The notes: generated from the letters alone by a model not told the origin. 64,000 bases of DNA from a bacterium (GCA_021836035.1 JAKBJL010000003.1:132135-196134); one strand, 5' to 3'; shown: positions 27,302 to 51,284, numbered from the stretch's first letter. Translations and numbers: made by a program.

Positions 27302-27423
27302 ATGTTAACCAAAACACCTTTTATCCTGGGCCGGAGCCATCTGAGCCTACAGACGTCGTCTGGCGAAGCTGAATAAAAACCTATCTCAAGGCTCTATCCC
27401 AAATTTGTGCCTGATTTCTTGAA

Positions 27424-27460
27424 GCTCTGGATGGAAGGTACCGAACCTTTTACGCACAAA
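27424..27460 (+). repeat. recombinase-like 3-prime-end remnant repeat R1 (degenerate: GC--TCTGGATGGAAGGTACCGAACCTTTTACGCACAAA)
   Basis: Aligns to R2-R5. Confidence 0.6.
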
Positions 27461-28147
27461 TTATTCCAGGCAACTATTTTTTGTTGGTCCCCGGCGAAAA
27501 CGATCCAGGAAAATTGTCTGTGAAATATCAATTGAATCTCGATAAAGACCCATTTTAAAATAAACTAAATTTTGTGTGTAATCAAAACCAAGTGGACCAT
27601 GATAACTGGCTAATATTTCGTTGTTGATCCAGACATCAACAAACCCGTCTAATGATTCGTTGAGTTGGTAATTAACCAAGACATCATGCCAAATACCGCG
27701 TGGATCTTTTGTCCAAAAGTATTTTTTCATTAATTGCTTCCTGCCCATTATGCAAAATTGCAACTGTCCGTTAATATAGCGAAATGAAAGAAAAGGTGAT
27801 TGTTTTTCTTCCTGGTAAAATTGTTTCCATTGTGCGAAAAGTAAACGATTATCAACGATAGGGAAATTGGTGGGGAAGTAAAACGAAAAAGCATACCAAA
27901 TGCCAGAATTTAAAGGTACTAAAATATCTTGTTTTTCCGAAAATTCTGCCCTTTCGGTGGGTTTATTATCTCGACCAATATCTGGTTTATCTCCGGTGCG
28001 AAGAGTTATTTTTAAGCTAGACTTTCCGTTCCGGGCTTGTTCTTCTGAAATTTCCCAAGAATGTTGTTCAACCCTTTTGAGCCACCAAATATTCCCATCT
28101 ATCTTACCTTCAAAATCGTCTTTTAATATTAAATCTTGGGCCGCCAC
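27461..28147 (-). CDS. ConA-like lectin/glucanase-fold protein, possibly a polysaccharide lyase (PF14099-like)
   Basis: 228 aa, W/F/Y-rich beta-sandwich-like sequence (…GIWYAFSFYFPTNFP…LLFAQWKQ…). Confidence 0.3.
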   Translation of the reverse strand: MAAQDLILKDDFEGKIDGNIWWLKRVEQHSWEISEEQARNGKSSLKITLRTGDKPDIGRDNKPTERAEFSEKQDILVPLNSGIWYAFSFYFPTNFPIVDNRLLFAQWKQFYQEEKQSPFLSFRYINGQLQFCIMGRKQLMKKYFWTKDPRGIWHDVLVNYQLNESLDGFVDVWINNEILASYHGPLGFDYTQNLVYFKMGLYRDSIDISQTIFLDRFRRGPTKNSCLE

Positions 28148-28230
28148 AAATTTATTGTAACAGAAGGTTCTTCCATTCAGCCATGAGATACTTTGGTATA
28201 GAAGCTAGGTAAGAATTTCTTCAGAAGAGT

Positions 28231-28295
28231 TTAGTGAACTATGTTTGCAACTACTACCGGGAAAATTATTCCAAGTACTAATGGTTACTATTGCG
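28231..28295 (+). repeat. second-type remnant repeat (≈80 % identical to 42997..43062, the 3-prime end of ORF 42709..43068)
   Basis: …TTTAGTGAACTATGTTTGCAACTACTACCGGGAAAATTATTCCAAGTACTAATGGTTACT… versus …CTTGGTGAACTACGTCAGCAACTTCTACCGGGAAAACTGTTCCAGTTACCAATGGTTACT…; the local copy carries a stop. Confidence 0.55.
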
Positions 28296-28362
28296 GGAGA
28301 ATAGTTAAAAAGCTGTCAAAATCATAAACTATGTTAGCTATGTTAGAATTGATTAAGATTCA

Positions 28363-28987
28363 ATGGCCAAGCTAGTTTCAACTAATCCCTCCAAAAATTT
28401 CGAAAAAATTGGTGAAGTCGATATTTCTTCTGAAAATGAGATTGCCGGAAAGGTTAAGAAGGCAAGGGAAGTCCAGAAGAGCTGGGGAAGTTTATCCGTA
28501 AAAGAACGGGTAATATACCTGCAAAAGGTATATGACCTTTTTGAAAAGCACCGGGAGGAACTTGGAAAGCTTGTTGGTGACGAAATTGGGATGCCATTGT
28601 CTGTGAGGGATTCTATGGAAATCGGAGCCGGTCAAGATTACTTCAAATGGTATTTGGAGAATGCGGAAAAATCTCTGTCACCGGAAATAACTCATGAAGA
28701 CGAAACCTCGCAAAGTAAGGTTTACTATGAACCTACTGGTGTCGCTGCTGTAATATCCCCCTGGAATTTTCCTTGGATTGGGAGGCTATCTTTTTACAGA
28801 GGATAAAATGTCAGCCAGGAGAGAAGCCTCAAAGATAAAGACGGGGATGATCGGGATTAATAACACAACTTACCTTCATCCGGCTAATCCATGGGGAGGA
28901 TATAAGAAATCAGGGCTGGGAAGGGGGAATGGAAAGTTTGGTCTTCGAGGGGTATCACAAATAAAGGTTGTTACTCTTGAAAAATAA
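28363..28987 (+). pseudogene. aldehyde dehydrogenase remnant: N-terminal ~147 aa joined out of frame to C-terminal ~60 aa; catalytic core (~270 codons) deleted
   Basis: N-fragment ends with the ALDH motif VYYEPTGVAAVISPWNFPW; C-fragment has GINNTTYLHPANPWGGYKKSGLGRGNG (the PFGG-K-SG-GRE region); the Cys/Glu catalytic region is absent. Confidence 0.75.
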
Positions 28988-29133
28988 TAAGCAAGGTGGG
29001 AGGAAAACACCTTCGGTTAGCTCCGCCAAGGCGAAGTCGAACAAACGCGAGTTGATAAATCAGCTCGCTTCGTTCGTCCTGTGAACTCGCTTGAAACAAA
29101 ATATCCCGAGACAAATGCCCGGGAATTTTGTTT

Positions 29134-29174
29134 GCAGCCCTGGATGGAAGACATTCGAACCTTTTACGCACAAA
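29134..29174 (+). repeat. recombinase-like 3-prime-end remnant repeat R2 (GCAGCCCTGGATGGAAGACATTCGAACCTTTTACGCACAAA)
   Basis: Encodes …REFCLQPWMEDIRTFYAQN… in an otherwise unannotated open frame (29021..29209). Confidence 0.65.
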
Positions 29175-29183
29175 ATGCTCTTT

Positions 29184-30356
29184 TTATTTGGAAAGGCTGG
29201 GTTGGTTAAGAAGGTAATACATTACACTGTAAACTTGGGTTATTCCTTCTGACCGCCAAGTGTTTAGTTTGCTTTTTGTCGTAGTATTTGTTCTTCGTTC
29301 TGCCAGAAAAACTAGTGTTTTTCCTATAAAAGTCTCAGCTTTTACCGGAACTCTCAAACCATAATAATTCTCAGTTTTTCCTTGGCCGCTAAGAAAATCA
29401 CCCACTCTTGCGTTGTTCATAGCAAAAATATTTCCAATTCTAGAATAGACTCGAGGGCCAAGACCCATAAAATCTACACCGTTGTTCATAAGTTTTCTTT
29501 GTGGTGCGTCCTTTTCTCTGCTAAAACCATAGGTACCTGTTTGGTTATATCCACATGTAACTAAATAATTTCTGGCCATGTCGTACATTTGATGCCGTTC
29601 ATGTAATCCCGGCCGACGCATCACTCCTTGGTTTATGAGATTCCTGCTTCTGGCGCCATAAGCATTGACATATTGAAACAAGGTAATTTCAGGCGGGTTT
29701 ACTTCTTCGACAACTCTAATTAAAGTATTTTCTAAACTTTGTTGTGTTTGATTCGGGGTACCAAACATGAGATCAATGTTGTAGGGTACACCGATTTGAT
29801 TTAAATTTTGAAGAATCTGAACTTCCTGTTGTGCCGAGGTAATATTCCGATCAAGACCCTGCCTTTCTTGATCTGATAAATTTTGAACTCCCAGGCTTAA
29901 TCTGCTTACCCCTAAGGCTAAAAGTCCCAATACATGATTTTCGGTAGCGTTTTTGGGGTGTAGTTCGAAAGTTATTCGGGCACCGTTGGTTTCCACATTT
30001 TGGCGAACATTAGCTAGAAGTTGATCGGCTTGACCTAGGGTTAAAAGTCCGGATGTCCCGCCTCCAAAGTAAACCGAAGTTATTTTTCCCCGGCCGACTT
30101 GTGGTAGGACAGTATCAAGGTGTTTTGAAAACGGTCCGATGTACCCTTCAATTTTTTCGGGACTGGCGGTTGTTCGGTGGAAGGCACAAAAAGAACAAAC
30201 TTGTTCACAAAACGGAATGTGGACATATAAAGCCAATCCTTTGCCAGCAGAGCGTCCAACCTCTCTTTGTTGGTTCATTTCTGCCAATCTAATTGGTTTT
30301 AGCCTGCCTTTAATAGTTTCACCTGCTAGCATGTGTAGCGCGTATTCACAATCCAT
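29184..30356 (-). CDS. radical SAM protein, HemW/HemN family (oxygen-independent coproporphyrinogen-III-oxidase-like)
   Basis: CEQVCSFCAF (CxxxCxxC), VYFGGGTSG (the GGGTP motif of HemN), 390 aa. Confidence 0.75.
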   Translation of the reverse strand: MDCEYALHMLAGETIKGRLKPIRLAEMNQQREVGRSAGKGLALYVHIPFCEQVCSFCAFHRTTASPEKIEGYIGPFSKHLDTVLPQVGRGKITSVYFGGGTSGLLTLGQADQLLANVRQNVETNGARITFELHPKNATENHVLGLLALGVSRLSLGVQNLSDQERQGLDRNITSAQQEVQILQNLNQIGVPYNIDLMFGTPNQTQQSLENTLIRVVEEVNPPEITLFQYVNAYGARSRNLINQGVMRRPGLHERHQMYDMARNYLVTCGYNQTGTYGFSREKDAPQRKLMNNGVDFMGLGPRVYSRIGNIFAMNNARVGDFLSGQGKTENYYGLRVPVKAETFIGKTLVFLAERRTNTTTKSKLNTWRSEGITQVYSVMYYLLNQPSLSK

Positions 30357-30392
30357 AAGTGCTTTATATACAAATAATGCTAAAATTGATAT

Positions 30393-31172
30393 ATGGGTGC
30401 TTTGACAGTAGCTTCACTAAACACTTTTGGAGGAGTGGTTGATATTTACAATTTGGCCCTTCGTTATAAAGCCATTGCTGATTACTTTAACTCTTCTACG
30501 GTGGATGTTATTCAGTTCCAAGAGGTTTTTACCTATTTGCATTTAGCATTATTTAAATATTTTTTGTCGGGGTATCAATATTGTCAGTTTCAAGCATCAT
30601 ATATGGGGCCGAAGGGTGGGCTAGTAACATTTTCTCGACACCAATTGATAAAACACCGTCATATTAACTACTCCCGTCACTTTGTCCCTTATTTAGGAAA
30701 GTCCATAATTGAGCTTTTTACCCAACGAGGGTTGTTGATAACTGAAATTAAGGGTTTTAGTGTGGCCTTAATTAACACCCATTTGACGGCGGTTCTTAAC
30801 GCCGATTGGAGCCAAAAAAGTAAATATTACAAAGAGCTAAGTTCTGAAATTAACGAATTTCACCAGTTGGTTAACGATGAGTCACTTAATAAAATCGGAA
30901 TTGCGACCGGGGACTTTAATACTGCCAAGGGTAGTGATTTATTTTGGCAGTTGATAAGTTGTCCAAGGCTAAATGATCCGTTCGAAAAAGATGAGCTTCC
31001 TACCCGGCATCAATGTTTTGCTGCCCTTGGTCGTAAAACCAATTGTGTTGATTATATTTTTGTTTTTGGTGATAAATCGCTGTACAAAGTTAAAGAAAAT
31101 AAGCGTATTTTTACGGAAAGGCCTTATGCTTCTGACCACATTGGACTTCAAATTTCTTTAACTCTTTCCTGA
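30393..31172 (+). CDS. endonuclease/exonuclease/phosphatase (EEP) family protein
   Basis: ASLNTFGG…VIQFQEV, TGDFNT, SDHIGL: the catalytic E, GDFN and SDH motifs of the EEP superfamily. Confidence 0.7.
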   Translation: MGALTVASLNTFGGVVDIYNLALRYKAIADYFNSSTVDVIQFQEVFTYLHLALFKYFLSGYQYCQFQASYMGPKGGLVTFSRHQLIKHRHINYSRHFVPYLGKSIIELFTQRGLLITEIKGFSVALINTHLTAVLNADWSQKSKYYKELSSEINEFHQLVNDESLNKIGIATGDFNTAKGSDLFWQLISCPRLNDPFEKDELPTRHQCFAALGRKTNCVDYIFVFGDKSLYKVKENKRIFTERPYASDHIGLQISLTLS

Positions 31173-31948
31173 GCTTGTTCGTATAACAAATAATCTTTTT
31201 CGTGAAACTGTTGAAACCGTCGTAGGAAATCGTGTTCATATGTTGGGGAAGATTGACGAAATTGTGGGGTGCGGTTTAGCCACTTAACTTGGTGTCGACC
31301 CATCTCTTTTCTCGAAACAAAACCGCTATTTTGCAGACAGCGGATCAATTTTTGAGCAAAGGCGTCGAGTTCGTTTGTGACTCCAACCACAGCAAAAGCA
31401 TGGAGGTCTTTTCCGCCTAATGCTTGGGTTTGATAATTTTGAAGTTGGGGCAATAAAGCGTAATCTTCAAAAGTTAATGCCGAATCGAACGGTATTCTTA
31501 CCCGCCATTCAGTGATACCTTTTGTTCTTTGCCAATGAGTATATTGCGATTCCATTCTTTCTAAAGGGTCACGGATGACAACGGCAGAGATAGGGTTGGT
31601 AATCAGTTGGTCAAAGCGATTTGCAGCAAAATGGCCGTGAATTGCGGCGAAATTGTCGGGTAAATTTGTGACCTGGATAACTTTAGGTTTTAGTACCCCA
31701 TCGATAAGTACTTGGTAAGCTTTATTTATAAGGGGAGCAAGGGGGGTGTTAGCAATTCTTAACCGGAGAGCATCGTGCACCCGATTTGTTCGTTGAACTT
31801 TAAGATCGGCGGACCTAGTTAATGTATCCCGAATAGGGTCGTATATGAGTACTCTGTTTTTTCCTAAAACCGACTCTAACAAATCTTGGATTGATGTCCC
31901 GGCAGTTTTTTCAATATGGACGCTTAATACGCGACTTTCAACTGGCAT
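31148..31948 (-). CDS. sulfotransferase-family protein
   Basis: VHIEKTAGTSI (5-prime-PSB H-x-P-K-T-G-G-T-like) and VVIRDPLERMES (RDP motif). Confidence 0.6.
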   Translation of the reverse strand: MPVESRVLSVHIEKTAGTSIQDLLESVLGKNRVLIYDPIRDTLTRSADLKVQRTNRVHDALRLRIANTPLAPLINKAYQVLIDGVLKPKVIQVTNLPDNFAAIHGHFAANRFDQLITNPISAVVIRDPLERMESQYTHWQRTKGITEWRVRIPFDSALTFEDYALLPQLQNYQTQALGGKDLHAFAVVGVTNELDAFAQKLIRCLQNSGFVSRKEMGRHQVKWLNRTPQFRQSSPTYEHDFLRRFQQFHEKDYLLYEQAQERVKEI

Positions 31949-31981
31949 ATAAATATCCTATAATATGAATTATATATCAAT

Positions 31982-32650
31982 ATGCCTGAGAATCAAAATG
32001 ATAAGTACCTTTGTTTACCACGAAGAAGCCCTCAAGAATGGCTAAGGGGAAAATTCCATGTAGATACAGAAAATATTCCCCGGCTTGTTTATCCTTTGGC
32101 TAAATTTATCCACGAAGAAAAACCGGATTATGTTTTAGCCATCGACTCCGGTGCACGAATTACTGGTCTTGCGTTATTTGCTTTTTACCACGAACTATAT
32201 GGAGAGTTACCTACAAAAGACCACCGGATTCACTTTCGTAAGATTTCCCATAGTTTTCCGGCGGAGGTGGTAAGGCGTCAACTGAAACCAGATATTTGCG
32301 AAGTAATGTCTTCAAGTGAATCACCGTTGTTATTTGTTGTTGATGATTGCGTCAATACAGGAACAACAACGCTGATGTTGCGATTATTAGTTTCTGAATT
32401 ATCTGAGGGAAAAGTCCGGCTTAAAATTGGAGTAATGCGAGAGTTTTTGGCCGGAGTAACAGATGTAAGGGGTGATACTTTTAGTCTTGCCAGAGCCACA
32501 TGGCGAAACAACTCGCAATTGATTGGAGTGGAATATACTGACAAGATTATCCCGCATGTTATGCGAACAGCCGAGGCCGCCAATTTAAGAAGAGAAATAT
32601 TTACCAATGTCAGAGGCTTTGCGTCCAAAATAAAAAGCAGGCAAATATGA
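31982..32650 (+). CDS. phosphoribosyltransferase-domain protein (type I PRTase)
   Basis: PRPP-binding loop LLFVVDDCVNTGTT. Confidence 0.6.
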   Translation: MPENQNDKYLCLPRRSPQEWLRGKFHVDTENIPRLVYPLAKFIHEEKPDYVLAIDSGARITGLALFAFYHELYGELPTKDHRIHFRKISHSFPAEVVRRQLKPDICEVMSSSESPLLFVVDDCVNTGTTTLMLRLLVSELSEGKVRLKIGVMREFLAGVTDVRGDTFSLARATWRNNSQLIGVEYTDKIIPHVMRTAEAANLRREIFTNVRGFASKIKSRQI

Positions 32651-34743
32651 AGAATGAAATTATAAATTATCGGGGATGTATCCACCCACTTGTGCCGGAT
32701 GTACTTAATGTTTGTCATGAGCAATTAACTGAAGCCCGGCTAAGAAACGGAGTTATTTTTGGTAAGGATCAAGGAATAGAATTACCAGTAAACGCTTTAA
32801 TTAGTGAAATAATAAAATTGCAGGAAGCCTATGATAGTCGATTAGCGTTAGCCATTATAGATCGGAGACTGCCAGCTGAATCAGTACCGCTTTTAAGACA
32901 AACTGCTAAAGTCTTAGAAAATAATAAAGCAGTAGTTGTTAACAAGTTTGCGTCTGGATGGCTAGAGAACGGCTGTGGTGATCAAGCCACACAATTAACA
33001 GCACACAGGCTACTTCACCTACTTTCTTTATCCGATACTCCACATTTGTTGGACAAATATAGTCTGGAAGTATCACCCACTCAGGGAATCTTTATTGTAC
33101 CGTCTGAAACTGATGGAATCTTGAAAGAAACATTGGCCCTTTTGCCGTTTGCAAAAAATGTTGTTGGTTTTCAAGTTAGACAAAACGGATCTGACAGGAT
33201 AGTAACTTTATTTGTAAACGCCGATGGTAAAAATTTAACTAGGACTGAAATTAAGGTCGATGGAAAAGACAAAGCGGCCATGGCTAAAAATAAAAAAACC
33301 AAAAGAATATTGATAGCTGTGGAGGGTGATATTGCCGGACATGCCGTGAGGGCATTAGAAACAGCTAGGGGTTTAAGAAGACTGGACTATGAACCGACAA
33401 TCGTTGGTAGCGGTTATTATGCCCGACCGTTTGTTGAAGAAGGTTTCAATTGTCTGCCACCGTTTAATACCGAGCAAACAGCTGAACGGGATCGTATTAT
33501 TACCCAGGCTAGAGGAGAAGGTAAAGGATTATTTTTCTGGGATTTTGATACTGTCAAAAAGCGCGTAGAAGGTTTCAAAACATCACTAAGGGGTTATGTT
33601 CAATCCGGTGTAGATCTTTTTCTTTGTGATATGAACCCAATTGTGGACATAGCCGTTAGTCATCTTCAAAAAGAAACAGGTAGAACTTTTCCAAAATTAA
33701 CCGAAACGCACAATATTCTTTTGTCAGCAACCAGAAGTTTACGAGCACTTAAAGTTGGCGGGATCTCGATGGGAGAATATCTTTACAAAGTCAATGGTTC
33801 AAGGGTATTAAAATTAATGGATCCAAAGGGTTTTCGTTTTGCGGCTACCCATTTTATTTTTAATGAAATTGCCGATGTGGTTATGGGTTTACCGCTTTCG
33901 GTCTATGAACGGCTTCACGGAGGCAGCGGATCGAGAATAAAATTTACTGATTACATGTACGGAAGAGACGGCACCCTACAGTTTTGTTTTAAACCAGACA
34001 GTAGGAACACAAAATCTTATCCGGTCGGCCTTCAGGCTGATAGGGGAAAAACCGATGGTTCTGATCGAGATCATTGGGAAGCAGAAATCCCAGCAGACAA
34101 AGCCTTTGTCTTAAACTCTCAAGGAAGTACATATCATAAGAAAGCTTGGGATACCGTAGTCGACGGATTAGCAGAAACTCCGACTTTATTTTCTGTTCAT
34201 GTCACAGGAATTAAAGAAGATCAGCCGTCTCCATTGGGCGGTTCAGAAGTGACCGGTTATAAAGTTGGTTATGTGGCTGGTTATAGAATGGCACAAAGAG
34301 CCGATGTTGTAATTAACCACGGCGGGTTTGGAACAATTTCTCAGTGGCTAATGGCTACAGCGGATAGAATTTGTGAAGAACGACAAATACTGGACCGGAT
34401 AGTTCAAGCTGGGTCTCCAGATGAAGTCCCCGCCTTTTTAATGTCCTGCCGCGGAATTTCCCGTTCACTTTCACTTTGCAATACTTTTGAGCAGGAAAAT
34501 AATTCCCGTTCGTTAAACGAAGTTGGTGGAGACCATGTTTGTACGGTCACAACGGCTGATGCTCTGTTGCAAACTACTGATCCAAAGGCAGAAATAAGAG
34601 AAAAAGTTGAGATGTTACTAACTGATCCGGTAGATAATCAAGAACGGGAGTTTTGGCTTGATCTGGTGAAATATGAAGCTACCATGAACGCACCGATACA
34701 CGCTGCCCTTATTTTGGAGAGGATTATGATGACAGGTAAATAA
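32647..34743 (+). CDS. large GT-B glycosyltransferase (GT1/GT28-like) with a ~220-aa N-terminal extension
   Basis: N-lobe RILIAVEGDIAGHAVRALETARGLRRLDYEPTIVG (the G-x-x-GH of MurG/UGT) and C-lobe ADVVINHGGFGTISQWL (the HGG-G-T nucleotide-sugar motif). Confidence 0.5.
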   Translation: MKNEIINYRGCIHPLVPDVLNVCHEQLTEARLRNGVIFGKDQGIELPVNALISEIIKLQEAYDSRLALAIIDRRLPAESVPLLRQTAKVLENNKAVVVNKFASGWLENGCGDQATQLTAHRLLHLLSLSDTPHLLDKYSLEVSPTQGIFIVPSETDGILKETLALLPFAKNVVGFQVRQNGSDRIVTLFVNADGKNLTRTEIKVDGKDKAAMAKNKKTKRILIAVEGDIAGHAVRALETARGLRRLDYEPTIVGSGYYARPFVEEGFNCLPPFNTEQTAERDRIITQARGEGKGLFFWDFDTVKKRVEGFKTSLRGYVQSGVDLFLCDMNPIVDIAVSHLQKETGRTFPKLTETHNILLSATRSLRALKVGGISMGEYLYKVNGSRVLKLMDPKGFRFAATHFIFNEIADVVMGLPLSVYERLHGGSGSRIKFTDYMYGRDGTLQFCFKPDSRNTKSYPVGLQADRGKTDGSDRDHWEAEIPADKAFVLNSQGSTYHKKAWDTVVDGLAETPTLFSVHVTGIKEDQPSPLGGSEVTGYKVGYVAGYRMAQRADVVINHGGFGTISQWLMATADRICEERQILDRIVQAGSPDEVPAFLMSCRGISRSLSLCNTFEQENNSRSLNEVGGDHVCTVTTADALLQTTDPKAEIREKVEMLLTDPVDNQEREFWLDLVKYEATMNAPIHAALILERIMMTGK

Positions 34744-34746
34744 AAT

Positions 34747-35583
34747 ATGAAACAAGCAGAAAATCTTTTCAAGCAGGTACCATATACGGGCATTCCCATG
34801 TTAGCCAGATTAGGAATGTCTTTGTTAGAGGCTCCGGGCGGAGCTATTACTTTTGGCGACCGGATACGAAATAGGGGTATCTTGTCCACTAGTGAAGCAC
34901 AGTCAATTTTATTTGAAGCAGTAGATCGGTTAGACGGAGCTCTAGCTGACAATTTAAAAAGCTCTCCCAGAATTGGGAAATATCTGGGACGGGGTTTCGA
35001 AGCCACTGTGTTTGCTTTAGACACGAAAGACGGCAAATGGGTTATGAAGATTGGTTTGCCAAAAAGTTGCGTTCCTGGGATTTATTCGCCGTCAACTGAT
35101 AAATATGCTGCTATGATGAAGTGGAATTATACTGTTCTTCAAAAAACGTTTTCCAGAGGACTACCACATATGCTACCGAACCCATACTTTGTTGTTACCC
35201 CAAGCGAATTGGGTCGAGCTACGACGGTTCAATTTCTCCCATATGTAGAAAAGATCGCAGACATGGATGTTTTAACAGCGGTTCAAAAATTGCATTTAAT
35301 TGAAGAAAGGCAAAAATTTTACGATACTTCGAAGTTGCTAATTGCAAAAAATAGAGTCATGCCGGATTTGGTCGGACCTAGAAATCTTATTTTAGGCATG
35401 GTGGAAAATGACCCGCATTATCATTTGATAGATCTTGGATTATTTCATCTCCGTGCTCCAACGCCGATACTTAATTTGCTGGTTTATTCATTCCAAAGAG
35501 CATCATTAATAAAAGATGTCAGTACATTGAAGTGTCAAGCACCCCTTTTGTTGCACACACTTTCTCTAAACAAAACGGCTTGA
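34747..35583 (+). CDS. atypical protein-kinase-like fold protein (Kdo/LPS-kinase/RIO-like)
   Basis: YLGRGFEATVFAL…KWVMKIG (Gly-loop and VAIK-like Lys), PDLVGPRNLIL (catalytic loop D…N), HLIDLGLF (DFG-like). Confidence 0.45.
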   Translation: MKQAENLFKQVPYTGIPMLARLGMSLLEAPGGAITFGDRIRNRGILSTSEAQSILFEAVDRLDGALADNLKSSPRIGKYLGRGFEATVFALDTKDGKWVMKIGLPKSCVPGIYSPSTDKYAAMMKWNYTVLQKTFSRGLPHMLPNPYFVVTPSELGRATTVQFLPYVEKIADMDVLTAVQKLHLIEERQKFYDTSKLLIAKNRVMPDLVGPRNLILGMVENDPHYHLIDLGLFHLRAPTPILNLLVYSFQRASLIKDVSTLKCQAPLLLHTLSLNKTA

Positions 35584-35951
35584 GAGTGGGAGCGACAGGT
35601 AAACGGATAGAAAATTGGATTGATAATTCGGATAAGGCTCTCCAGTTTGCGGTTCAAACCCGCTACACATTCGCTAATGGCAGTATTGCAGATAAACGGG
35701 ACATATTGGCCACCATTGGATCGAACCTAATTTTGGAAGATGGAAAGTTGCATTGCAAAGCCCAAGGTCCATATTGCTTCCTGGAAGAGATTGTAAAAGT
35801 GGAGCCGACAGCTTCAGCAGAGTTCGAACCTGAGAAGCAGGGTATATCAACAGCCCAATTGGAGACTTTGTGGATTCAAAATCCATCTGTGCAGCCCTGG
35901 ATGGAAAACCTTCGAACTTTTTGTGCCCAAAACTATCTTTTTGTCGAATGA
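35532..35951 (+). pseudogene. C-terminal remnant of a large-serine-recombinase-like gene (…SNLILEDGKLHC…QPWMENLRTFCAQNY); contains repeat R3
   Basis: Aligns with the tails of 42709..43068 and 2063..2632; 5-prime end overlaps the preceding gene. Confidence 0.4.
35891..35932 (+). repeat. recombinase-like 3-prime-end remnant repeat R3
   Basis: GCAGCCCTGGATGGAAAACCTTCGAACTTTTTGTGCCCAAAA. Confidence 0.65.
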
Positions 35952-35963
35952 TATACTTATAGC

Positions 35964-37622
35964 GTGGCTGAAGGTAATCAGGAAACTTCGATACCAGAAC
36001 AACCAAAACACCAATTATCAACTCGCCGACAGTTTCTTAAACGAGCAGGCTTAGGGGTAGCAGCATTGACAGCTGTATCTGTAGGTGTAGGCGAGGCAAG
36101 GAAAGATTATTTTTCTGAAGGTGCCGATCCTGAAATCCAATCGGCATTAGAAAAACAAGGCGTTAAAGATGTCCACTTAAGAATGTACTTCGGAGATCAT
36201 TACTTCACTCAAGAAACAGCTAATAAGATGGAAGCGCAAGGCGTTACTGTCATCACTGGTGAGCTAGGTTTTACACCCGGAACTGGACGAATTGGTGGTA
36301 ACGAAACAAAAAGTGTTGCTGAAGAATTCTTTGTAAATCTTAAAAAGTTACCGAATGGGGTGACTGGTTCTGATCAAATGCGACTTCAATCACAACGAAG
36401 CGCAGAATTATTAGAACGGTTTTCTAGGGGTCGAGCAATTTTAGCTTCTGATAACGGGATTGGTGGCACGGCATTGCAGGAAGCAGCCAACGAAGTATGG
36501 GTCGGGTGGGGTTTGTTTGGTTCTCTATTGTATTTTGCGGGATTGGCTTGGAAGACAGGAATGTTAACTGATTCAAAAAACCCTATCTCTCGACGGGGTT
36601 TTCTAAAAGGAGCGGCGATTGGTGGTGGTGCCGCAATAAGCAGTTTAATTGGTGGAGCTTTATATCAAACGGCAGAAAACCGTGGCTGGATCGAACCAAC
36701 TGCCAATACCGAGGTTTCTTATATTTACTCAAGATTGTTTAATTTGGTGGCAGTTGATGTTTCGACTAAAGCTTTGGAAATTGCAGGTGATAAGCGCCTT
36801 TTACAAGCGTTCCAATCTCTAATTAACGTCAGAAATAAAGTCATGGCCTTGAATAATTGGTATTTGATCGAATCGCTAGAGAGGAGCAAAGGTTTACGGC
36901 AGGGTCTTACTGGACCAAATGAATATGTCGAAATGGGATTTTTTGCCGGAGCGGGACACTCGGCAGCTAAAGATGAATTCTGTAAGGGGCCGTCTCAACT
37001 TGGAACGGAATTAAAAGCAGAGGTTAGCAGTTGGCTTGATCAGTATGAAAAAGACATGGCAACGGCACCAGAAGATAAAAAAGAACACGTGCTCGATTAT
37101 TACCAGGGTTTAATGACGACTTTTGGACGTCCTTATTTGATCAGCCATTCGCCTATTAACCAAGAGGGAACTGGGTTAGACAACCATATTCCAAAGGTTG
37201 ATGCTCCAGCAGCCATCATGTATCGAACTTTGGTTGAAAGGATTACAGAAAGGAGATCGTCTGGACAAAACGCAGATAATTATGAGCAGTTAGTCGCGGG
37301 GCTAGTTAAAGACCAGCATTTCCCAGACGGAACTTATATTAATGTTAGCGGTAAAAATGTTTTAATCGAAGGGAAATATCACGGGGAAATGACAGCTAAA
37401 GACCCAGGAGCCCTAAGGGAAAGGTTTGTCGAATGCAATTTTATATCTCCCGATGATTTGCGGTCGATTCAAGGCGAATTATACCCGGGACTTTACACTT
37501 ACGACTATGGTGGGCCAGTGGTAGATAAAAAGGTGTCAGTTGGGATTGCTATCATCAGGGGTATGCCCGCGACGTTTTTCCAAAAAGAAGATACATCGTT
37601 TATTATAAGTAAAGCTCCCTAA
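35964..37622 (+). CDS. hypothetical Tat-signal protein with a second internal twin-arginine motif
   Basis: N-terminus STRRQFLKRAGLGVAALTAVSVG (S/T-R-R-x-F-L-K); a second SRRGFLKGAAIGGGAAISS at ~residue 205; 552 aa. Confidence 0.55.
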   Translation: MAEGNQETSIPEQPKHQLSTRRQFLKRAGLGVAALTAVSVGVGEARKDYFSEGADPEIQSALEKQGVKDVHLRMYFGDHYFTQETANKMEAQGVTVITGELGFTPGTGRIGGNETKSVAEEFFVNLKKLPNGVTGSDQMRLQSQRSAELLERFSRGRAILASDNGIGGTALQEAANEVWVGWGLFGSLLYFAGLAWKTGMLTDSKNPISRRGFLKGAAIGGGAAISSLIGGALYQTAENRGWIEPTANTEVSYIYSRLFNLVAVDVSTKALEIAGDKRLLQAFQSLINVRNKVMALNNWYLIESLERSKGLRQGLTGPNEYVEMGFFAGAGHSAAKDEFCKGPSQLGTELKAEVSSWLDQYEKDMATAPEDKKEHVLDYYQGLMTTFGRPYLISHSPINQEGTGLDNHIPKVDAPAAIMYRTLVERITERRSSGQNADNYEQLVAGLVKDQHFPDGTYINVSGKNVLIEGKYHGEMTAKDPGALRERFVECNFISPDDLRSIQGELYPGLYTYDYGGPVVDKKVSVGIAIIRGMPATFFQKEDTSFIISKAP

Positions 37623-38100
37623 AACAACTTTTTATTAACCTCTTCACTTGAATAATAGGTTGTTGTTTCGCTTAGCTCTCCGATTGAGACTTAAGACAAA
37701 AGAGAAACGGAGCGTCTTGTATTGGAAGGAGATATGCAATCCCGGATGCGTGAACATTTGGCAGGTAGTGGACAACAATATGTCCGTGAGGAACTGGGGA
37801 GGATCTTCCCTGAACTCGATCCTACTTCTGACTAAGCAGAATGGAGCTCCGAACAAAAAGAGGCAATGGAATGGGCACTTGATCATGCCCAAGCGATGCT
37901 GGTTAGCGCGATTCTGAAAAGAACAGAAGGGTACAAAGCCGGTCTGGAAGCACAATTCAAAGGAAACAACGAACTCGCAGGAATGAAAGACCTAGGCTTA
38001 AACCAGAGACGAGACTTGCTTGCAGTCGATAATTTAACCCCCCTTCTTAAAACTTTTCAACCAAACCAATCCAAGTAAGCAGATTATTCAAGGAGTTCAC

Positions 38101-38868
38101 TTATGTTTTCGGGTCAGTAGCAATTAATTTACAATAACTTTCCTCCATATAAGATTGCTCTTTAATTTTCCATCCCGTTTCTTCTAGAATCTTTTTGGCC
38201 TCCGGAGGGATAGCCGGAGAGGAGGCAAACTGGCCTTCTTTTTGAAATTCAGTCGTAATCAATGCCGCCCCAGGTGTTGCTAGCCGTCTCATTTCTGTCC
38301 AAAATTTGCGAAGGACTTGTTCCGATGCCATTCCTTGATTCAAGCTGGGATTATAAGCGGCCATTGCTTGACCATCAAAAACTTCAAAGCCGTTTACTAC
38401 TAACGTGTTAATTGCTCCACTGGCAAAAGGATTTTCGTAGAAGCTTGCCACGACCTTTTCAGCTTTCTGTGTACCTTTTAACTGAGTTATATATTTATTG
38501 AAATAATCCGGATCTAACGAAGTCATTATCGTGTTTTCTTGGCCAAAAACGCTGCCTGGTAATCCGTCAAAACCCGAGGCTATATATAAAACTTTTGGGG
38601 TAACCTTTTGCTTGTCCAATTCTTGTTTTTCGCGGAGGTAGTGCTGAGCACGGAAATACTCATCCAGGAGTTCTGCGCTCTTCGAATCTAACTTTCCAAG
38701 TCGTCTTTTTTCTGCAAGTTTATGGGCTTCATCAAGAGGAATCGGTTTGGCGTGGTAATATTCAGTAAATAATTTTCCGTCACGGACAAAGTCCACAAAC
38801 TGCCTAAATTTGAATCCCCAATCTTGTCCTGTTCTTACCTCTGTCTCTGAAAGTGAACTATCAATCAT
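38101..38868 (-). CDS. hypothetical protein
   Basis: 255-aa ORF adjacent to the MFS transporter. Confidence 0.5.
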   Translation of the reverse strand: MIDSSLSETEVRTGQDWGFKFRQFVDFVRDGKLFTEYYHAKPIPLDEAHKLAEKRRLGKLDSKSAELLDEYFRAQHYLREKQELDKQKVTPKVLYIASGFDGLPGSVFGQENTIMTSLDPDYFNKYITQLKGTQKAEKVVASFYENPFASGAINTLVVNGFEVFDGQAMAAYNPSLNQGMASEQVLRKFWTEMRRLATPGAALITTEFQKEGQFASSPAIPPEAKKILEETGWKIKEQSYMEESYCKLIATDPKT

Positions 38869-38870
38869 TT

Positions 38871-40136
38871 TTAAATAACTCCAACGATTTTTGGTTCCGG
38901 TTGGCCGGCTAGTGGTTCGGTTTTTGGTAGATGCTCTTTAAGTTTCAATGAATACGGAAGTAGAAAAAATGCTATTAAGGGTAGAAATCCAATTAATAGA
39001 AAAGTTAATCTCAAAGAGTGATCGGCCGCAAAACCAACCATCGGATTGGCGATGGCAAAGACTAGGGTTTTCAGAGTAGAAGTCGCGGACAGAATCGTAG
39101 CTCTTTGTTCCGCGGGAATAAATTCATTCATCGTGGTATTCATAAAAGATGATCTTGTTGAGGCTAATCCACCAACCAAAATTATGGCTATAACTACCGT
39201 AACTACCGATGGATAAATTGCAATAAAAATAAGTGTGGCCGAGACAATGATTGCTGTCAGATTAACAAAGTTTTTTTCGGAACCAAAGATTCTTTCTGTA
39301 ATGTGGATATTAAAAGTTGCCGCAGTTGCGGCTAAGGAAAAGGCAGACCTAATAAATCCAAAGTAAATAATGGCTAAACCAACTTTAACTAGCATTGGTT
39401 GGTAAAGCCAAATAAGAAAATAAGCACCGATCCAGACGAGGATATCGCTAGCAATTAAATAAAGAACTGTCTTATTCTTCAGAAGTATTGAGATTCCCAT
39501 TTTGCTGGTATTTATTAAGTCGTGACGAGAAAAGACTTTTTGCGTTTTCGGTTCGTCAACCGTCAAAATGACAATTGCGGCTATAAATAAGGGAATAGCT
39601 GAGATAATCATTGGCGCGCGAAGTCCAAACTGGGCCGCAATAAGGCTACCAACCGGTGCGGCGACAATGGTTCCCAGGTTACTAAATGATGAGGATCGAG
39701 CTAATACTTTTTTGCTTTCATTATCTCGACCCGACCTTTTCAGGTAATCGTAAACTAGGGCACTACTGGCACCTACCACAAACGAAGTTCCCAGGGCCGC
39801 CAAGAATTCAGCAAAAAGGAACAGATAAAAATTGGGGATTAGGACATAAACCACACTCGAAATTGCCAGGATAAAACCCCCAAGACTAACTGAGACTTTC
39901 CTTCCCAAGTGATCGGCAAGAGCTCCTGTTGGGATATTAAGGACAAACATCCAGATCATGAGCCATGATTGAAGAAATTGCACTTGGGTCAAATTCAAGT
40001 GGCCCCATTCGGTATAAAAGGGAACTAGAACTGAGACGTAAAACATTAAGCCACTAAAAAAGGTGGCTAAATAGTAACGAAAGACGAACCCTGAGGGGTT
40101 TAATTTCTGCCAAATGTCATGCACTTTACTTCTCAT
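38871..40136 (-). CDS. MFS transporter
   Basis: 12 predicted TM helices, 421 aa, MFS-like loop motif (GALADHLGRK). Confidence 0.75.
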   Translation of the reverse strand: MRSKVHDIWQKLNPSGFVFRYYLATFFSGLMFYVSVLVPFYTEWGHLNLTQVQFLQSWLMIWMFVLNIPTGALADHLGRKVSVSLGGFILAISSVVYVLIPNFYLFLFAEFLAALGTSFVVGASSALVYDYLKRSGRDNESKKVLARSSSFSNLGTIVAAPVGSLIAAQFGLRAPMIISAIPLFIAAIVILTVDEPKTQKVFSRHDLINTSKMGISILLKNKTVLYLIASDILVWIGAYFLIWLYQPMLVKVGLAIIYFGFIRSAFSLAATAATFNIHITERIFGSEKNFVNLTAIIVSATLIFIAIYPSVVTVVIAIILVGGLASTRSSFMNTTMNEFIPAEQRATILSATSTLKTLVFAIANPMVGFAADHSLRLTFLLIGFLPLIAFFLLPYSLKLKEHLPKTEPLAGQPEPKIVGVI

Positions 40137-40647
40137 TGGCTAAGTCTCGACTTATCTTATCGACGCACTCTTTAAGCGATAAACGTTCAGTGTCGAGGAT
40201 TATAGCCCCAGGGTAATCTGTCTTCTCAAGATGTTCGAAAATATCCTTGATCTTCTCATCGCCCATTGGTTTACGACACCCTTCTTTAATTCCGGGTCTA
40301 GTTCTGTCTCTCTCCTGAAGCGTCGATAGAGAGCATTTGATTTGATAGACAAGGACTTTTATACCTCTTGTCTTAGCTGATTCAACGGCCATAGGAATAA
40401 TGAATGGATCGTAGAAGATTTTTTCCATAACAACCGAAAAGTTATGATCCAGTAGGTAATTAAGTGTTGCCAAAGCGCTTTCGTCGACAAACTTCTGTTC
40501 CTCCGGAGTGACATCGGTGGAAAAGAAGTCCTTGAAATTATCAACCTTGAGCCAGACTACCCTTTTTTCAAAATTTCGTAATTCTCTGGAGATAGTTGTT
40601 TTCCCGCTTGCTGGGGCACCCCGAATAATTACTAAGAATTGTTCCAC
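40126..40647 (-). CDS. P-loop kinase (AAA_33/chloramphenicol-phosphotransferase-like fold)
   Basis: Walker A IIRGAPASGKTT at the N-terminus; 173 aa. Confidence 0.55.
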   Translation of the reverse strand: MEQFLVIIRGAPASGKTTISRELRNFEKRVVWLKVDNFKDFFSTDVTPEEQKFVDESALATLNYLLDHNFSVVMEKIFYDPFIIPMAVESAKTRGIKVLVYQIKCSLSTLQERDRTRPGIKEGCRKPMGDEKIKDIFEHLEKTDYPGAIILDTERLSLKECVDKISRDLANEK

Positions 40648-40693
40648 AGAATCAGTTTATCATCCGTCATCTTTCTGGTCTATAATTTAAGCT

Positions 40694-41257
40694 ATGTCGA
40701 GTAATTTTGAAAACCATAGCACGATTATCCATAAGCGCCAAATTTACGGGCAGGTGTTAGAATACACGAACATGCAAAACGGATCGTTCGTTGTTCTTTT
40801 TAAAGACAGTGCCCGCCAAGAAGTATTTTTAGTTTTTCGTTCTGATTATCCTATATGGGGTATTACTGGTGGGGGGATTGAAAATGGAGAAACTTCAGAA
40901 CAAGCGGCGGTGAGGGAAGCCTTTGAGGAAACCGGGTTCGAGGTTAAAATTCTTAGAAAAGTCGGGGTTTATGAAAACGGGCTTGCCAAAACACATCTCT
41001 TTGAGGGCAGAGTTATTAAAGGTGACTTCAAGCCAGAGTTCCCGGGATGTAGAGGGGCCTGGTTTAAAGTTGATAATTTACCGAAGGATATGACGCATCG
41101 GGCTAAAGAAAAAGTCCAAGACGTCTCTAGTTGTTTTGATAAAACGCCTTTTGTCAAAAAAATACAAGGAGAATTGATTAGCGATAACTTAATTTTGGTA
41201 CTACGGCACCCATGTTATTTATTGAAATACCTAACGAATCAAATCGTTACCCACTAA
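40694..41257 (+). CDS. NUDIX hydrolase
   Basis: Nudix box GGGIENGETSEQAAVREAFEETGF (G-x5-E-x7-REUxEExGU). Confidence 0.75.
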   Translation: MSSNFENHSTIIHKRQIYGQVLEYTNMQNGSFVVLFKDSARQEVFLVFRSDYPIWGITGGGIENGETSEQAAVREAFEETGFEVKILRKVGVYENGLAKTHLFEGRVIKGDFKPEFPGCRGAWFKVDNLPKDMTHRAKEKVQDVSSCFDKTPFVKKIQGELISDNLILVLRHPCYLLKYLTNQIVTH

Positions 41258-41409
41258 TACATCAAAATCTTTGCCCACATGGCGGACACAAACAGCCCCG
41301 TACTTATTCAGACAGAGAGAGTAGGTTTTCTACTAAAATATCCTGATAAGTTTGATTCCAGTTGGGCGTTGATTTATTTTGATATAGAAACTAGGCACGA
41401 ATTTTGTTG

Positions 41410-41447
41410 GCAGCCCTGGATGGAACACATTCGAACTTTTTACGATC
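41410..41447 (+). repeat. recombinase-like 3-prime-end remnant repeat R4 (inside small ORF 41279..41473, …RHEFCWQPWMEHIRTFYDQ…)
   Basis: GCAGCCCTGGATGGAACACATTCGAACTTTTTACGATCA. Confidence 0.65.
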
Positions 41448-41456
41448 AGGTGAAGA

Positions 41457-42299
41457 TTATTTCCTTACAATAACTCTTTCATTTATGGGGGGTGTTACTT
41501 CCTCTGATGGGTCGGGCAGTTCAAAAGTCTCGGGATTATAATCGTCGTCCTGTTTTGGTATCTTTCCGAAGATAGCATATTTTTCCCCATTATAATCGAT
41601 TGTCTCAGACAATCTTTGCCAATAATCGTGAGTCTGGTTCTCTCCGATAGGATCTTCATCTATATTAGAAAGGACATAAAATCTTCCACTTTTTTTATTA
41701 ATCCAATGAGCCTCAAAATATACGGCATTTTCCGTCTCTTTTAAATCACCGGGAAGATTTAACTGGGTAACAGGTACAAACCTCTCATTGCCACCACCGA
41801 CATCAGAGCCTTCATAGAGATGGATTACTAAAGAATCCAAACTTCCTTGAAGTTTATCTGCATTTTCGAGGGGGATCAGATGCAAAACTAAGACGTAGTG
41901 TGCTTCGAAGAATTGATCTTCGGCTTCTTGAGCCAAGGATTCTTCTCGTAACTCCTTCGGTGTATCCTTATGGGTGGGATTAAGTAGTTTAAACATGGGG
42001 GAACGGGCTATTGGTATGTATATTTGCAGGTAATAGCCTGGACTTCTTAATCTACCGATTGTAGCTTCTGTGTCGCCAAATGAAATTTCTTTTGATTGCG
42101 GATCGTGGAAATGAACCGTGCTGTTCAAATCCCCAGAGCTATAATGTCTGGCCAATTCTGCTTGTACACTACTGTAAGAAAGCTCCCTATATGTCTGAGG
42201 TGATTGAGAAAGACTCAAGAAGATAGGAGTCAACCCTACCAGATCATCAGGCGGGGGATATTCAGGAATATGTGGTCGAGGGAATTTTTCTTTGGGCAT
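41457..42299 (-). CDS. hypothetical protein
   Basis: 280-aa ORF; no motif recognised. Confidence 0.5.
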   Translation of the reverse strand: MPKEKFPRPHIPEYPPPDDLVGLTPIFLSLSQSPQTYRELSYSSVQAELARHYSSGDLNSTVHFHDPQSKEISFGDTEATIGRLRSPGYYLQIYIPIARSPMFKLLNPTHKDTPKELREESLAQEAEDQFFEAHYVLVLHLIPLENADKLQGSLDSLVIHLYEGSDVGGGNERFVPVTQLNLPGDLKETENAVYFEAHWINKKSGRFYVLSNIDEDPIGENQTHDYWQRLSETIDYNGEKYAIFGKIPKQDDDYNPETFELPDPSEEVTPPINERVIVRK

Positions 42300-42347
42300 T
42301 TAGGAACATTATAGTGTTTCTGGTTCCTTTAATCAACCTATAGTATC

Positions 42348-42388
42348 TGCAGCCCTGGATAGAAAGTATTCGAACCTACTGCGCTCAA
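42348..42388 (+). repeat. recombinase-like 3-prime-end remnant repeat R5
   Basis: GCAGCCCTGGATAGAAAGTATTCGAACCTACTGCGCTCAAA. Confidence 0.6.
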
Positions 42389-42427
42389 ATTCAGGTATTT
42401 GCTACTATTGTTTGACCTAAAATTATT

Positions 42428-42670
42428 TTATGTGGTTAAAAAGCGAACAACTTCTCGAACAACCTCTGCCTTTGGTCTGAGAATAAAGTCTCCATGCCCT
42501 CCGGGGTAGAAAAGCGACTTCCCATCGCTGAATCTGCGACGTAGCAATTCTGCCCGTCTTCTAAACATTTTTGTTTCATCTTTTGAATTAACTATTAAAA
42601 TGTCTTTACCTTCCAAAATATCAAGTTCGTTATACCAATCAGTATGAAAAAGATTGTAAAAGCCCTCCAT
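42428..42670 (-). pseudogene. possible C-terminal fragment of an alpha/beta hydrolase
   Basis: 80 aa ending …LFYPGGHGDFILRPKAEVVREVVRFL (His-containing C-terminal segment); no N-terminal nucleophile elbow. Confidence 0.25.
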
Positions 42671-42708
42671 TATTAGATGCGTGGCTAAACGGAAAGGTTA
42701 AGGAGGAT

Positions 42709-43068
42709 TTGTATAATACTAAATCGGTCGAAATCGAGAGAGAGAAAGATGAAGTTATCGCCGAGATAGCAAAACACAAAACTACGGATCGTGCGTATCA
42801 AGCGGATATTGGGGGATTTTTAACTTTTTGTAACGAAGCTCCAACTTTATTCAAAAGTTCGAGACCTGCTCTAAAACGGGAGCTTTTGAGATTTGTCGTT
42901 TCGAACCTTATTTTGAAAGACGGAAAGCTCGATATTACGCTCCGTTTGCCATTCAACATAGTCGCAAAGTATGCCAAAAATGAGAATTGGCAGGGCTTGG
43001 TGAACTACGTCAGCAACTTCTACCGGGAAAACTGTTCCAGTTACCAATGGTTACTTACTCCCAATTAA
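42709..43068 (+). pseudogene. C-terminal remnant of a large-serine-recombinase-like gene (…ALKRELLRFVVSNLILKDGKLDITLRLPF…NWQGLVNYVSNFYREN…)
   Basis: 119 aa with no catalytic N-terminus; the tail aligns with 35532..35951 and 2063..2632; 3-prime end ≈80 % identical to 28231..28295. Confidence 0.4.
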
Positions 43069-44114: not shown

Positions 44115-44155
44115 GGTGAAACCGCTAAGACGTATGATAAGAGTATAATAAAACT

Positions 44156-44746: not shown

Positions 44747-44747
44747 T

Positions 44748-45188: not shown

Positions 45189-45196
45189 TTGTTAAC

Positions 45197-45985: not shown

Positions 45986-45993
45986 AGATAAGC

Positions 45994-48203: not shown

Positions 48204-48205
48204 AA

Positions 48206-48940: not shown

Positions 48941-49124
48941 ATATTCCTATTTTACCAGAGAAGAACTGTCAGAGAGTTTTTAACCAGGAGACAACCTTGG
49001 TGAACGAGGTTTTTCCGGAAGCGATTTGGGCTCCGATAACTGCCAACAGGCCGCCGATAATAAAGGGCACAGTTATTCTTTCACCAAGAAGAAGGACTGC
49101 CAGAATGATCGTGGCTACGGGTTG

Positions 49125-51272: not shown

Positions 51273-51284
51273 ATTATTTTAACT

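Follow-up and report, generated by a model that had tools for sequence, protein, structure and literature searches.

The 64,000-nucleotide stretch of bacterial DNA analysed here (GCA_021836035.1 JAKBJL010000003.1:132135-196134, referred to throughout as the window) contains a run of gene cassettes that are separated by short direct repeats and end at a gene for tRNA-Trp. The interval from ~27.4 to 49.2 kb is probably a stack of remnants of at least seven small integrative elements, each of which once carried a large serine recombinase (LSR) inserting at the 3' end of tRNA-Trp. A first-pass annotation of the window had already proposed a tandem accretion of integrated elements, and this view is upheld by the direct repeat at each boundary and by cargo that is unrelated between units. 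The same annotation held that successive elements had entered a single hotspot inside the 3' end of the previous element's recombinase or target gene. The head-to-tail stack of different elements stands; the hotspot, however, appears to be the 3' end of tRNA-Trp and not the previous recombinase gene, since recombinase frames end inside tRNA-Trp in loci elsewhere (L001, L002, L005, L006 and L107).

The anatomy of such insertions is displayed by three complete elements of 7-12 kb, from a Candidatus Daviesbacteria genome (L005), a Patescibacteria genome (L006) and a further metagenome locus (L107, reoriented coordinates). Each has, in order, a far-end site resembling the repeat, cargo, the LSR and tRNA-Trp:

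L005: P' site at 2852; LSR at 8783-10309 (508 aa); tRNA-Trp at 10277; bases common to both ends AATTGGCAGG
L006: P' site at 2478; LSR at 8825-10333 (502 aa); tRNA-Trp at 10280; bases common to both ends TGGCAGGG
L107: type-1 P' site at 121; LSR at 10584-12311 (575 aa); tRNA-Trp at 12284; bases common to both ends GCAG

The P' site of L005, which reads GCAGGCATTAGTGCATGACCTTCGAACAATTTGGCACAAAA, lies 7.4 kb upstream of the tRNA, and the corresponding spans are 7.8 kb in L006 and 12.2 kb in L107. Identity between attL and attR, the attachment sites at the two ends of an integrated element, extends over 4 bp in L107, 8 bp in L006 and 10 bp in L005, and the crossover core, (T)GGCAG or TGCAG, sits within the last codons of the recombinase. 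Joining the left half of the near-side junction to the right half of the far-side junction rebuilds the site of the free element, in which the LSR frame crosses the core and stops 13 codons further on; the 41-bp repeat of the window thus corresponds to the element-side arm, P'. This arm encodes the final 13 residues of the recombinase, QPWMExIRT[FYW]YAQ[IN], together with the stop codon. In the integrated state, as the junctions are read here, the LSR frame enters the reverse complement of the tRNA and the P' arm lies at the opposite end of the element. Where the first-pass annotation had seen the repeat as the leftover of an older element's 3' end, it is instead, to judge from L005:2852, L006:2478 and L107:121, the incoming element's own P' arm, encoding the last 13 codons of the LSR in the free element. 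It resembles the 3' end of a gene because the LSR frame crosses the core into the P' arm in the free circle. One unit of the window (29134-35891) shows the pairing of L107, with a repeat of the first type (type 1) at its start and an L107-type recombinase relic at its end. Beyond the recombinase relic, no synteny was found between the window and the loci with complete elements.

At the opposite end of the elements, the recombinase frame and the tRNA gene meet directly. The closest short relative of the window fragments, P0001, ends in ENWQARQVSNLRPSVLETDALPAKLRA, a tail that is tRNA-Trp read backwards, and on its contig the frame runs straight into an opposite-strand tRNA-Trp. LSR frames end in the same way inside opposite-strand tRNA-Trp genes in L001, L002/L003, L005, L006 and L107, and the frame of one family member (L137) ends inside tRNA-Pro. 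The tails of 152 family proteins include 67 tRNA read-throughs (W-x5-SN) and 43 of the P type (W-x7-RT[FY]). As far as these reading frames indicate, the LSR clade inserts at the 3' ends of tRNA genes, and it is both large and apparently undescribed; its hosts are Patescibacteria (Microgenomates).

The repeats and the complement of tRNA-Trp have TGCAG...ATTCGAACC in common, and the attachment-site relationship that had been suspected on this ground, with coincidence as the alternative, has proved real. On the plus strand the 3' end of tRNA-Trp reads GCAG-N10-ATTCGAACC, the T-loop sequence TTCGAAC (there (A)TTCGAAC) starting 10 nt past GCAG in tRNA-Trp genes. In all P' sites, [AC]TTCGAAC starts 15 nt past GCAG. 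At the protein level the shift appears as TCGAAC being read S-N after W plus five codons, or x-R-T after W plus six codons. Rutherford et al. (2013) placed the motif of the zinc-ribbon domain at bp 16-24 of attP half-sites and at bp 11-19 of attB, a 5-bp shift that was present in nearly all the systems they examined (PMC3783163). If GCAG is taken to contain the centre, the midpoint of TTCGAA is ~20 bp away from it in P' and ~15 bp away in the tRNA, and on the one arm that shows the motif the offset in this clade would agree with the published attP/attB geometry. We infer that the recombinase recognises the T-loop motif TTCGAAC of the tRNA.

The long fragments of the window, at 35583-35909 and 42658-42996, are by homology C-terminal relics of LSRs. 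A large-serine-recombinase origin had been suggested in the first-pass annotation and is substantiated by full-length relatives with Resolvase, Recombinase and Zn-ribbon domains; the likeness to DUF4368 proposed along with it is unsupported, because neither Pfam nor NCBIfam returned a significant match, DUF4368 or any other, for the two fragments (119 aa and 139 aa). A word-indexed protein search with the fragments returned four short relatives only. A profile composed of the fragments and these four relatives, searched exhaustively against 1.84 billion representative proteins, matched 3203 of them. Ten full-length matches (492-546 aa) were scanned for domains: Resolvase and Recombinase (PF07508) were each present in all ten, and Zn_ribbon_recom (PF13408) in six; in these ten the profile match always fell within the last ~100 residues. 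In tblastn searches, residues 389-501 of the L005 recombinase matched 42658-42996 (65% identity, E 1.4e-43) and residues 464-572 of the L107 recombinase matched 35583-35909 (69% identity, E 1.5e-44); the family hidden Markov model (HMM), run on a six-frame translation of the window, recovered the two relics with E values of 2.7e-33 and 9.3e-16, respectively. Both align C-terminal of the Recombinase and zinc-ribbon domains (within residues 377-501 and 464-572). A catalytic Resolvase N-terminus was found nowhere in the window by tblastn with eight full-length recombinases, which matched the two C-terminal relics and nothing else; this agrees with the earlier observation that no copy retains one, so that what the window contains of the family is relics and no gene that is itself a member. 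At least three recombinase subfamilies are represented in it. Viral contigs were matched by neither the protein profile nor the DNA motif, leaving a phage nature of the elements without evidence, and a Pfam scan of the L005 and L006 cargo revealed no phage or conjugation genes.

A third long fragment that had been grouped with these two, at 2063-2632, does not belong to the family and was rejected (family HMM E 0.11; phmmer E 0.006 or worse). It is a conserved coiled-coil open reading frame (ORF) of 188-189 aa that overlaps the ychF start and is found at the same position, with 71% identity, in the syntenic relative L132; a gene for an HNH endonuclease (1476-1802) adjoins it. None of the Ccr models matches the relics, and a faint NCBIfam match to CcrC concerns only this unrelated fragment.

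Two types of repeat were distinguished in the window. A type-1 profile built solely from 90 motif instances of other metagenomes and then run on the 64-kb window gave exactly five matches, on the plus strand throughout, at 29134 (E 1.6e-16), 41410 (5.5e-14), 35891 (8.6e-13), 42349 (1.1e-11) and 27423 (3.4e-8). The sixth-best match was the T-loop of tRNA-Trp, at an E value of 1.5. Scores of 29-56 bits at the real sites compare with a maximum of 8.4 bits in 20 shuffled windows, and the five same-orientation copies first noted, here placed at 27421, 29134, 35891, 41410 and 42349, are borne out by this external profile and do better than shuffled sequence. A repeat search returned four in-register direct copies (29133, 35890, 41409 and 42348; 74-100% identity), and a search for the exact consensus with up to three mismatches matched at 29134 alone. 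The window copies retain 26-40 of 44 consensus positions, that is, they are visibly decayed. The type-1 repeat (WQPWMEDIRTFYAQ) is of the W-x7-RT[FY] tail kind, and the translations quoted in the first-pass annotation were correct. Its divergent second type, put at ~80% identity, was recovered as a pair (28226-28289 and 42992-43055) with 81% identity over 64 nt; a type-2 search of the window returned these two matches only (28226 and 42992). All seven sites have the orientation of the tRNA-Trp reverse complement and lie between ORFs or at ORF ends, at the cassette boundaries where the copies had been placed. A long open frame is closed only by the sites at 35891 and 42992; upstream of the remaining five, stop codons occur within 3-25 codons.

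The array extends from J1 to tRNA-Trp as follows, J denoting the sites and S the units between them, with the strand given where one applies:

27421..27465, plus strand: J1, a type-1 site (P' arm) that is degenerate and has small deletions, the leftmost recognisable boundary (profile match 27423-27462, E 3.4e-8)
27461..28147, minus strand: S1 cargo, a polysaccharide lyase gene (Pfam PF14099, E 8.9e-28)
28219..28295, plus strand: J2, type-2 site with its core decayed to TTCAG (81% identity to 42992; nhmmer E 7e-20), preceded by a short recombinase-end relic, ..RYFGIEAR*EF
28363..28984, plus strand: S2 cargo, an aldehyde dehydrogenase pseudogene (Aldedh profile matches)
29134..29179, plus strand: J3, type-1 site (P' arm), consensus-identical over 41 nt (E 1.6e-16), preceded by the relic ..KYPETNAREFCLQ
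29184..35583: S3 cargo, six genes (Pfam scan): a radical SAM protein, a member of the endonuclease/exonuclease/phosphatase family, and proteins of 266, 222, 698 and 278 aa without Pfam match
35583..35909, plus strand: C-terminal relic, ~109 aa, of an L107-type LSR (tblastn, family HMM), ending ..LWIQNPSVQ at the core
35891..35936, plus strand: J4, type-1 site joined in frame to the left-hand element's relic (E 8.6e-13)
35964..41257: S4 cargo, five genes, for a TAT-signal protein, a 255-aa protein, an MFS transporter, a zeta/AAA-type kinase and a NUDIX protein
41410..41455, plus strand: J5, type-1 site with a full TGGCAG core (E 5.5e-14), preceded by the relic ..IYFDIETRHEFCWQ (41365-41409)
41457..42299, minus strand: S5 cargo, a 280-aa protein without Pfam match
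42349..42394, plus strand: J6, type-1 site whose left side lacks a recombinase relic (E 1.1e-11)
42658..42996, plus strand: S6, a C-terminal relic, 113 aa, of an L005/P0006-type LSR (tblastn, family HMM), ending ..AKYAKNENWQ at the core
42992..43061, plus strand: J7, type-2 site fused in frame to the relic at 42658-42996 (E 2.2e-21)
43051..48940: S7, low-GC cargo of ~6 kb from J7 to the tRNA, without recombinase (domain scans); its genes include isochorismatase-like, DUF5680, HD-domain and methyltransferase genes
48974..49121, minus strand: remnant of an EamA-type transporter gene that encodes the 50 C-terminal residues (match to positions 100-132 of the 135 in the Pfam EamA profile, E 3.8e-5, with a score under the gathering threshold)
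49124..49195, minus strand: tRNA-Trp, CCA anticodon, the integration target (ARAGORN; Rfam 67.3 bits)

Seven same-strand boundary repeats, unrelated cargo in each unit and a low-GC block ending at tRNA-Trp are the hallmarks of a tandem array that the window displays. GC content is 0.40-0.43 from ~25.5 kb to tRNA-Trp, compared with 0.45-0.48 outside, and the segments between repeats are mutually dissimilar, repeated sequence being confined to the 45-70-nt sites. J2, J3 and J5 are each preceded by a ~12-codon relic of a third recombinase-end type, ..YF.IE.R.EFC[WL]Q. Recombinase content per unit ranges from relics of 109-113 codons in two units and of ~12 codons in three to none in the rest, with no intact integrase. 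Decay is visible in the cargo too: in the S2 pseudogene, 28363-28806 corresponds to Aldedh profile positions 11-140 and 28835-28984, in another frame, to positions 415-461, such that the N-terminal 130 and C-terminal 47 profile positions are kept and ~275 internal residues are missing.

The same architecture recurs, with differing cargo, in unrelated genomes. Metagenome contigs, many of them short, were searched for the exact 22-base pattern CARCCNTGGATGGARNNNNTTCGAAC, a choice that is biased to well-preserved sites, and the type-1 motif was found in 116 loci. Of these, 31 contain a tRNA-Trp gene, which in every case lies on the opposite strand and 0.5-3.6 kb downstream of the motif (12.2 kb in L107). 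At least ten loci have two or three copies in the same orientation, some of them with type-2-like sites further upstream. Upstream of the motif the frame is usually filled with stop codons, and ~42 nt are conserved, through the stop codon of the motif itself. Over the 90 unique sites, a drop in information content is seen at the third positions of the T, Y and A codons. These positions had been left free by the search pattern, and the drop is as expected of a coding tail. In-frame continuation of a recombinase ORF at the site is seen in L046 and at J4 and J7 of the window. The left arms (n=89) comprise a few recombinase ends, at least five terminator-like hairpins, 19 with TTGARGC and 64 that are unclassified, the terminator-like arms plausibly representing the native downstream flank of the tRNA. 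Furthermore, in L025, which overlaps L107, an orphan type-1 site is found 295 bp past the far end of the L107 element, so that the unit still intact adjoins the tRNA and the scar lies distally.

We are now able to propose a history for the array. The recombinase family, the tRNA junction, the two-ended architecture, the short core, the shifted motif and the stacking can be read directly from sequence, and from these we infer insertion by the recombinase. Each element would have been inserted by its own LSR at the 3' end of tRNA-Trp, with newcomers entering on the tRNA-proximal side. Wherever the left-hand neighbour is an older element, the newcomer's P' arm is joined to the last codons of the neighbour's recombinase, so that a gene 3' end seems to recur. 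Older units, displaced from the tRNA and flanked on both sides by P-type arms, would no longer have been excisable under known rules, and the units so stranded would then have lost their recombinase genes by deletion, with relics of 0-113 codons left behind. Nothing in the window is autonomously mobile today.

Several observations weigh against this history. The greatest obstacle is that recombination between attP and attR is forbidden under the standard rules for serine integrases, so that stacking presupposes that any sequence to the left of the core is tolerated; the many kinds of left arm observed would be compatible with this. A full recombinase is present in only one of the 116 type-1 loci (L107), fewer than simple decay would lead one to expect, although short contigs are frequent and the exact-match search favours well-preserved sites. 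In type-2 sites the TTCGAAC motif is not intact, GTCAGCAAC standing in its place, and the P and P' arms show no clear dyad symmetry; what a dyad search of P against P' did reveal, a TTTGAA/TTCGAA symmetry, was limited to one subset of the left arms and is not relied on here. The tRNA-adjacent unit, S7, has no recombinase relic and ends in a truncated EamA gene, so that an extra deletion or pseudo-site event is needed to account for it. Additionally, three relatives at ~70% protein identity have the order DnaB-tRNA-Leu-NIF3, with no tRNA-Trp between DnaB and NIF3. Recombination was not observed, nor did an excised circle, an empty site or an island-free allele turn up for this genome; the three relatives reached through the NIF3 flank in the search for an island-free allele are too distant (~70% identity) to serve as an empty site.

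Two of these regions deserve a closer description. The truncated EamA gene stops 2 nt short of the 3' end of tRNA-Trp, and an intact EamA gene is present at 11371-12324. The truncation suggests a rearrangement junction at the core, produced by a one-sided site-specific deletion or a pseudo-site event. The DnaB-NIF3 interval, which holds tRNA-Leu-CAA, is variable in length: it spans 0.2 kb in L134, 1.6 kb with Trp-repressor-like genes in L133, 5.8 kb in L135 (L135/L136), where MazE/PIN, Rad52 and NUDIX genes accompany an inverted tRNA-Leu, and 30 kb in the window (20135-50298), ArgRS and NDK included.

Of the other explanations, the one we take most seriously, while still judging it unlikely, is that the array is a living cassette store in which the conserved P' sites, together with the short left arms, are still used by tRNA-targeting serine integrases that act in trans from other elements and capture, excise or shuffle modules beside tRNA-Trp. 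Seven sites without a single recombinase in the window, a P' arm whose ~42 nt are well conserved in 90 distinct external sites with a recombinase in one locus only, cassettes of 0.3-0.7 kb in L057, L025 and L063, and the like ending of many left arms (..GARGCTATTTT) would all suit such a store. The conservation, however, is partly built in through the exact 22-base pattern by which the external sites were chosen, and the window copies are visibly decayed (26-40 of 44 consensus positions retained); left arms are mostly heterogeneous (64 of 89 unclassified) and the cargo includes pseudogenes. At internal junctions, moreover, two P-type arms would meet, and recombination of such a pair by serine integrases is not normally seen (PMC3783163). 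Were the store real, Patescibacteria would have a serine-recombinase counterpart of the integron.

The three further readings are each very improbable. Islands of the kind made by tyrosine integrases, with the repeats as displaced copies of the tRNA-Trp 3' end at island far ends, are what TGCAG and ATTCGAACC, shared in equal orientation by repeats and tRNA-Trp complement, would first bring to mind, as tRNA islands are normally ascribed to tyrosine integrases (PMC4383910). A displaced tRNA fragment is nevertheless excluded by the 5-nt shift of the T-loop motif, by the 4-10 bp that attL and attR of complete elements have in common, and by the absence of any Phage_integrase match in the scanned ORFs of the island; the tRNA reaches only E 1.5 against the repeat profile, acceptor and T-stem sequences mismatch, and the gene abutting the tRNA in complete elements is a serine recombinase, all of which leaves this reading with very little weight. 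We give equally little to local duplication and decay of one resident gene family in the absence of mobile elements: tandem gene copies that then decayed could yield 3' ends in one orientation, but the segments between repeats are unrelated to one another, which excludes it, and at least three recombinase subfamilies in the window and identical architecture with different cargo in unrelated genomes speak against it as well. Least probable of all is a structured or regulatory repeat (an attC hairpin, a REP/MITE-like sequence or a small RNA) whose likeness to a coding end is superficial. The sites are indeed short, conserved, intergenic, of one orientation and at gene boundaries, yet their fold z-scores against shuffles lie near zero (-0.66 to +0.79, no stable fold) and an Rfam scan of them matched no family, results by which a hairpin, attC or structured RNA is excluded; the tie of the motif to tRNA-Trp in every one of the 31 loci holding that gene, the codon-position variation and the in-frame continuation of recombinase ORFs tell further against it.

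Accretion of LSR elements at tRNA-Trp, the reading we prefer, can be set beside several known systems. Ccr proteins are themselves LSRs, and the comparison with staphylococcal cassette chromosome (SCC)/orfX islands is apt. In SCCmec and composite SCC elements, serine recombinases (CcrAB or CcrC) insert at the 3' end of a conserved gene, rlmH (orfX); the elements stack head to tail with short direct repeats between them, and recombinase-less pseudo-elements persist. The present array differs in its tRNA target in place of rlmH, in its recombinase clade, in a repeat that lies within the recombinase frame, and in its hosts, which are Patescibacteria (Microgenomates) rather than staphylococci. Attachment sites inside the integrase gene are known from Mx8 intP/intX and from SSV1-type integrases, in which integration into a tRNA gene alters or splits the frame and archaea keep the captured elements. 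Those integrases are tyrosine recombinases, whereas in the present clade the exchange is confined to the last 13 codons and integration leaves the catalytic protein whole (L002, L005, L006 and L107).

Among the large serine integrases (A118/LI, Bxb1, phiC31 and SPbeta), likeness extends to the Resolvase, Recombinase, Zn-ribbon and coiled-coil C-terminal regions seen in the relatives, to the very short identity between element ends, and to an outer motif 5 bp nearer the centre in the host site (PMC3783163). The present clade differs from them in targeting the 3' end of a tRNA gene, in a core that lies inside the last codons of the integrase, the C-terminal 8-22 residues changing on integration, and in a C-terminal tail for which there is no Pfam model. 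Serine-family integrases have been stated as not known to target tRNA genes (PMC4383910), and a small serine recombinase using a tRNA gene, that of phiRSM, is cited in PMC7192596. Tandem arrays at tRNA genes were described with Islander/TIGER, integration regenerating a usable site beside which diverse neighbours accumulate (PMC7192596). Those arrays are ascribed to tyrosine integrases and bounded by displaced tRNA fragments, whereas the repeat here is not a tRNA fragment and the recombinase is of the serine type and has been lost from all units of the window. As to integrons, the scanned island ORFs include nothing like IntI, and the sites show no fold of the attC kind. Tandem arrays of integrative elements and composite islands of serine recombinases are already known (PMC7192596). 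A non-exhaustive literature search found no description of the LSR clade or of its site architecture, and an earlier description is possible.

A clade with thousands of homologues (3203 profile matches) appears to target tRNA genes, with the near-universal T-loop as part of the host site. If confirmed, this would supply a rule for finding elements, namely a recombinase frame running into a tRNA together with a far-end T-loop mimic offset by 5 bp; it would account for the many orphan gene fragments that lie next to tRNA-Trp in genomes of Microgenomates; and it would provide integrases whose natural target motif is present in most genomes. More generally, a C-terminal tail that differs between the free and integrated states is a possible switch of directionality or expression.

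The complete elements have further features of note. L107, an element targeting tRNA-Trp, carries a class-I aminoacyl-tRNA synthetase gene of the Trp/Tyr type (201-1343), a curious passenger for such an element, as well as genes at 6416-7069 and 7051-8829 for a CHC2 primase zinc-finger protein and a 587-aa Walker-A protein. Directly upstream of the recombinase, a three-gene module is found in L002 (3554-4631), L005 (7716-8779) and L006 (7801-8667), encoding a repressor-like/helix-turn-helix protein of 60-80 aa, a protein of ~123 aa and one of ~178 aa; these are candidates for a regulator, a directionality factor or replication functions.

Finally, other repeats are present in the window. An intergenic element of 60-70 nt recurs at 3812-3854, 5367-5409 and 51407-51449, and also at 7246-7302, 20227-20314 and 14995-15023, upstream of housekeeping genes (S6, EF-P, a CtpB-like protease and ArgRS). 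It reads ..AAAGAAGGGGGG..GGGGCTCCCCGC..GTTGCCACCCTT.CTAAAA..GTAAT and resembles a GC hairpin followed by a promoter-like TTGCCA-N18-TAAATA; Rfam gave no match to it. A 37-nt sequence, TATTATAATTTAAGGGTCCTGGCAACCCGCAGCCCCA, occurs at 5231-5267 and 51275-51311 with 89% identity, ~100 nt upstream of two copies of this element. A 42-nt inverted repeat (55764-55805 and 59787-59828) has arms that are 79% complementary and lie 4 kb apart.

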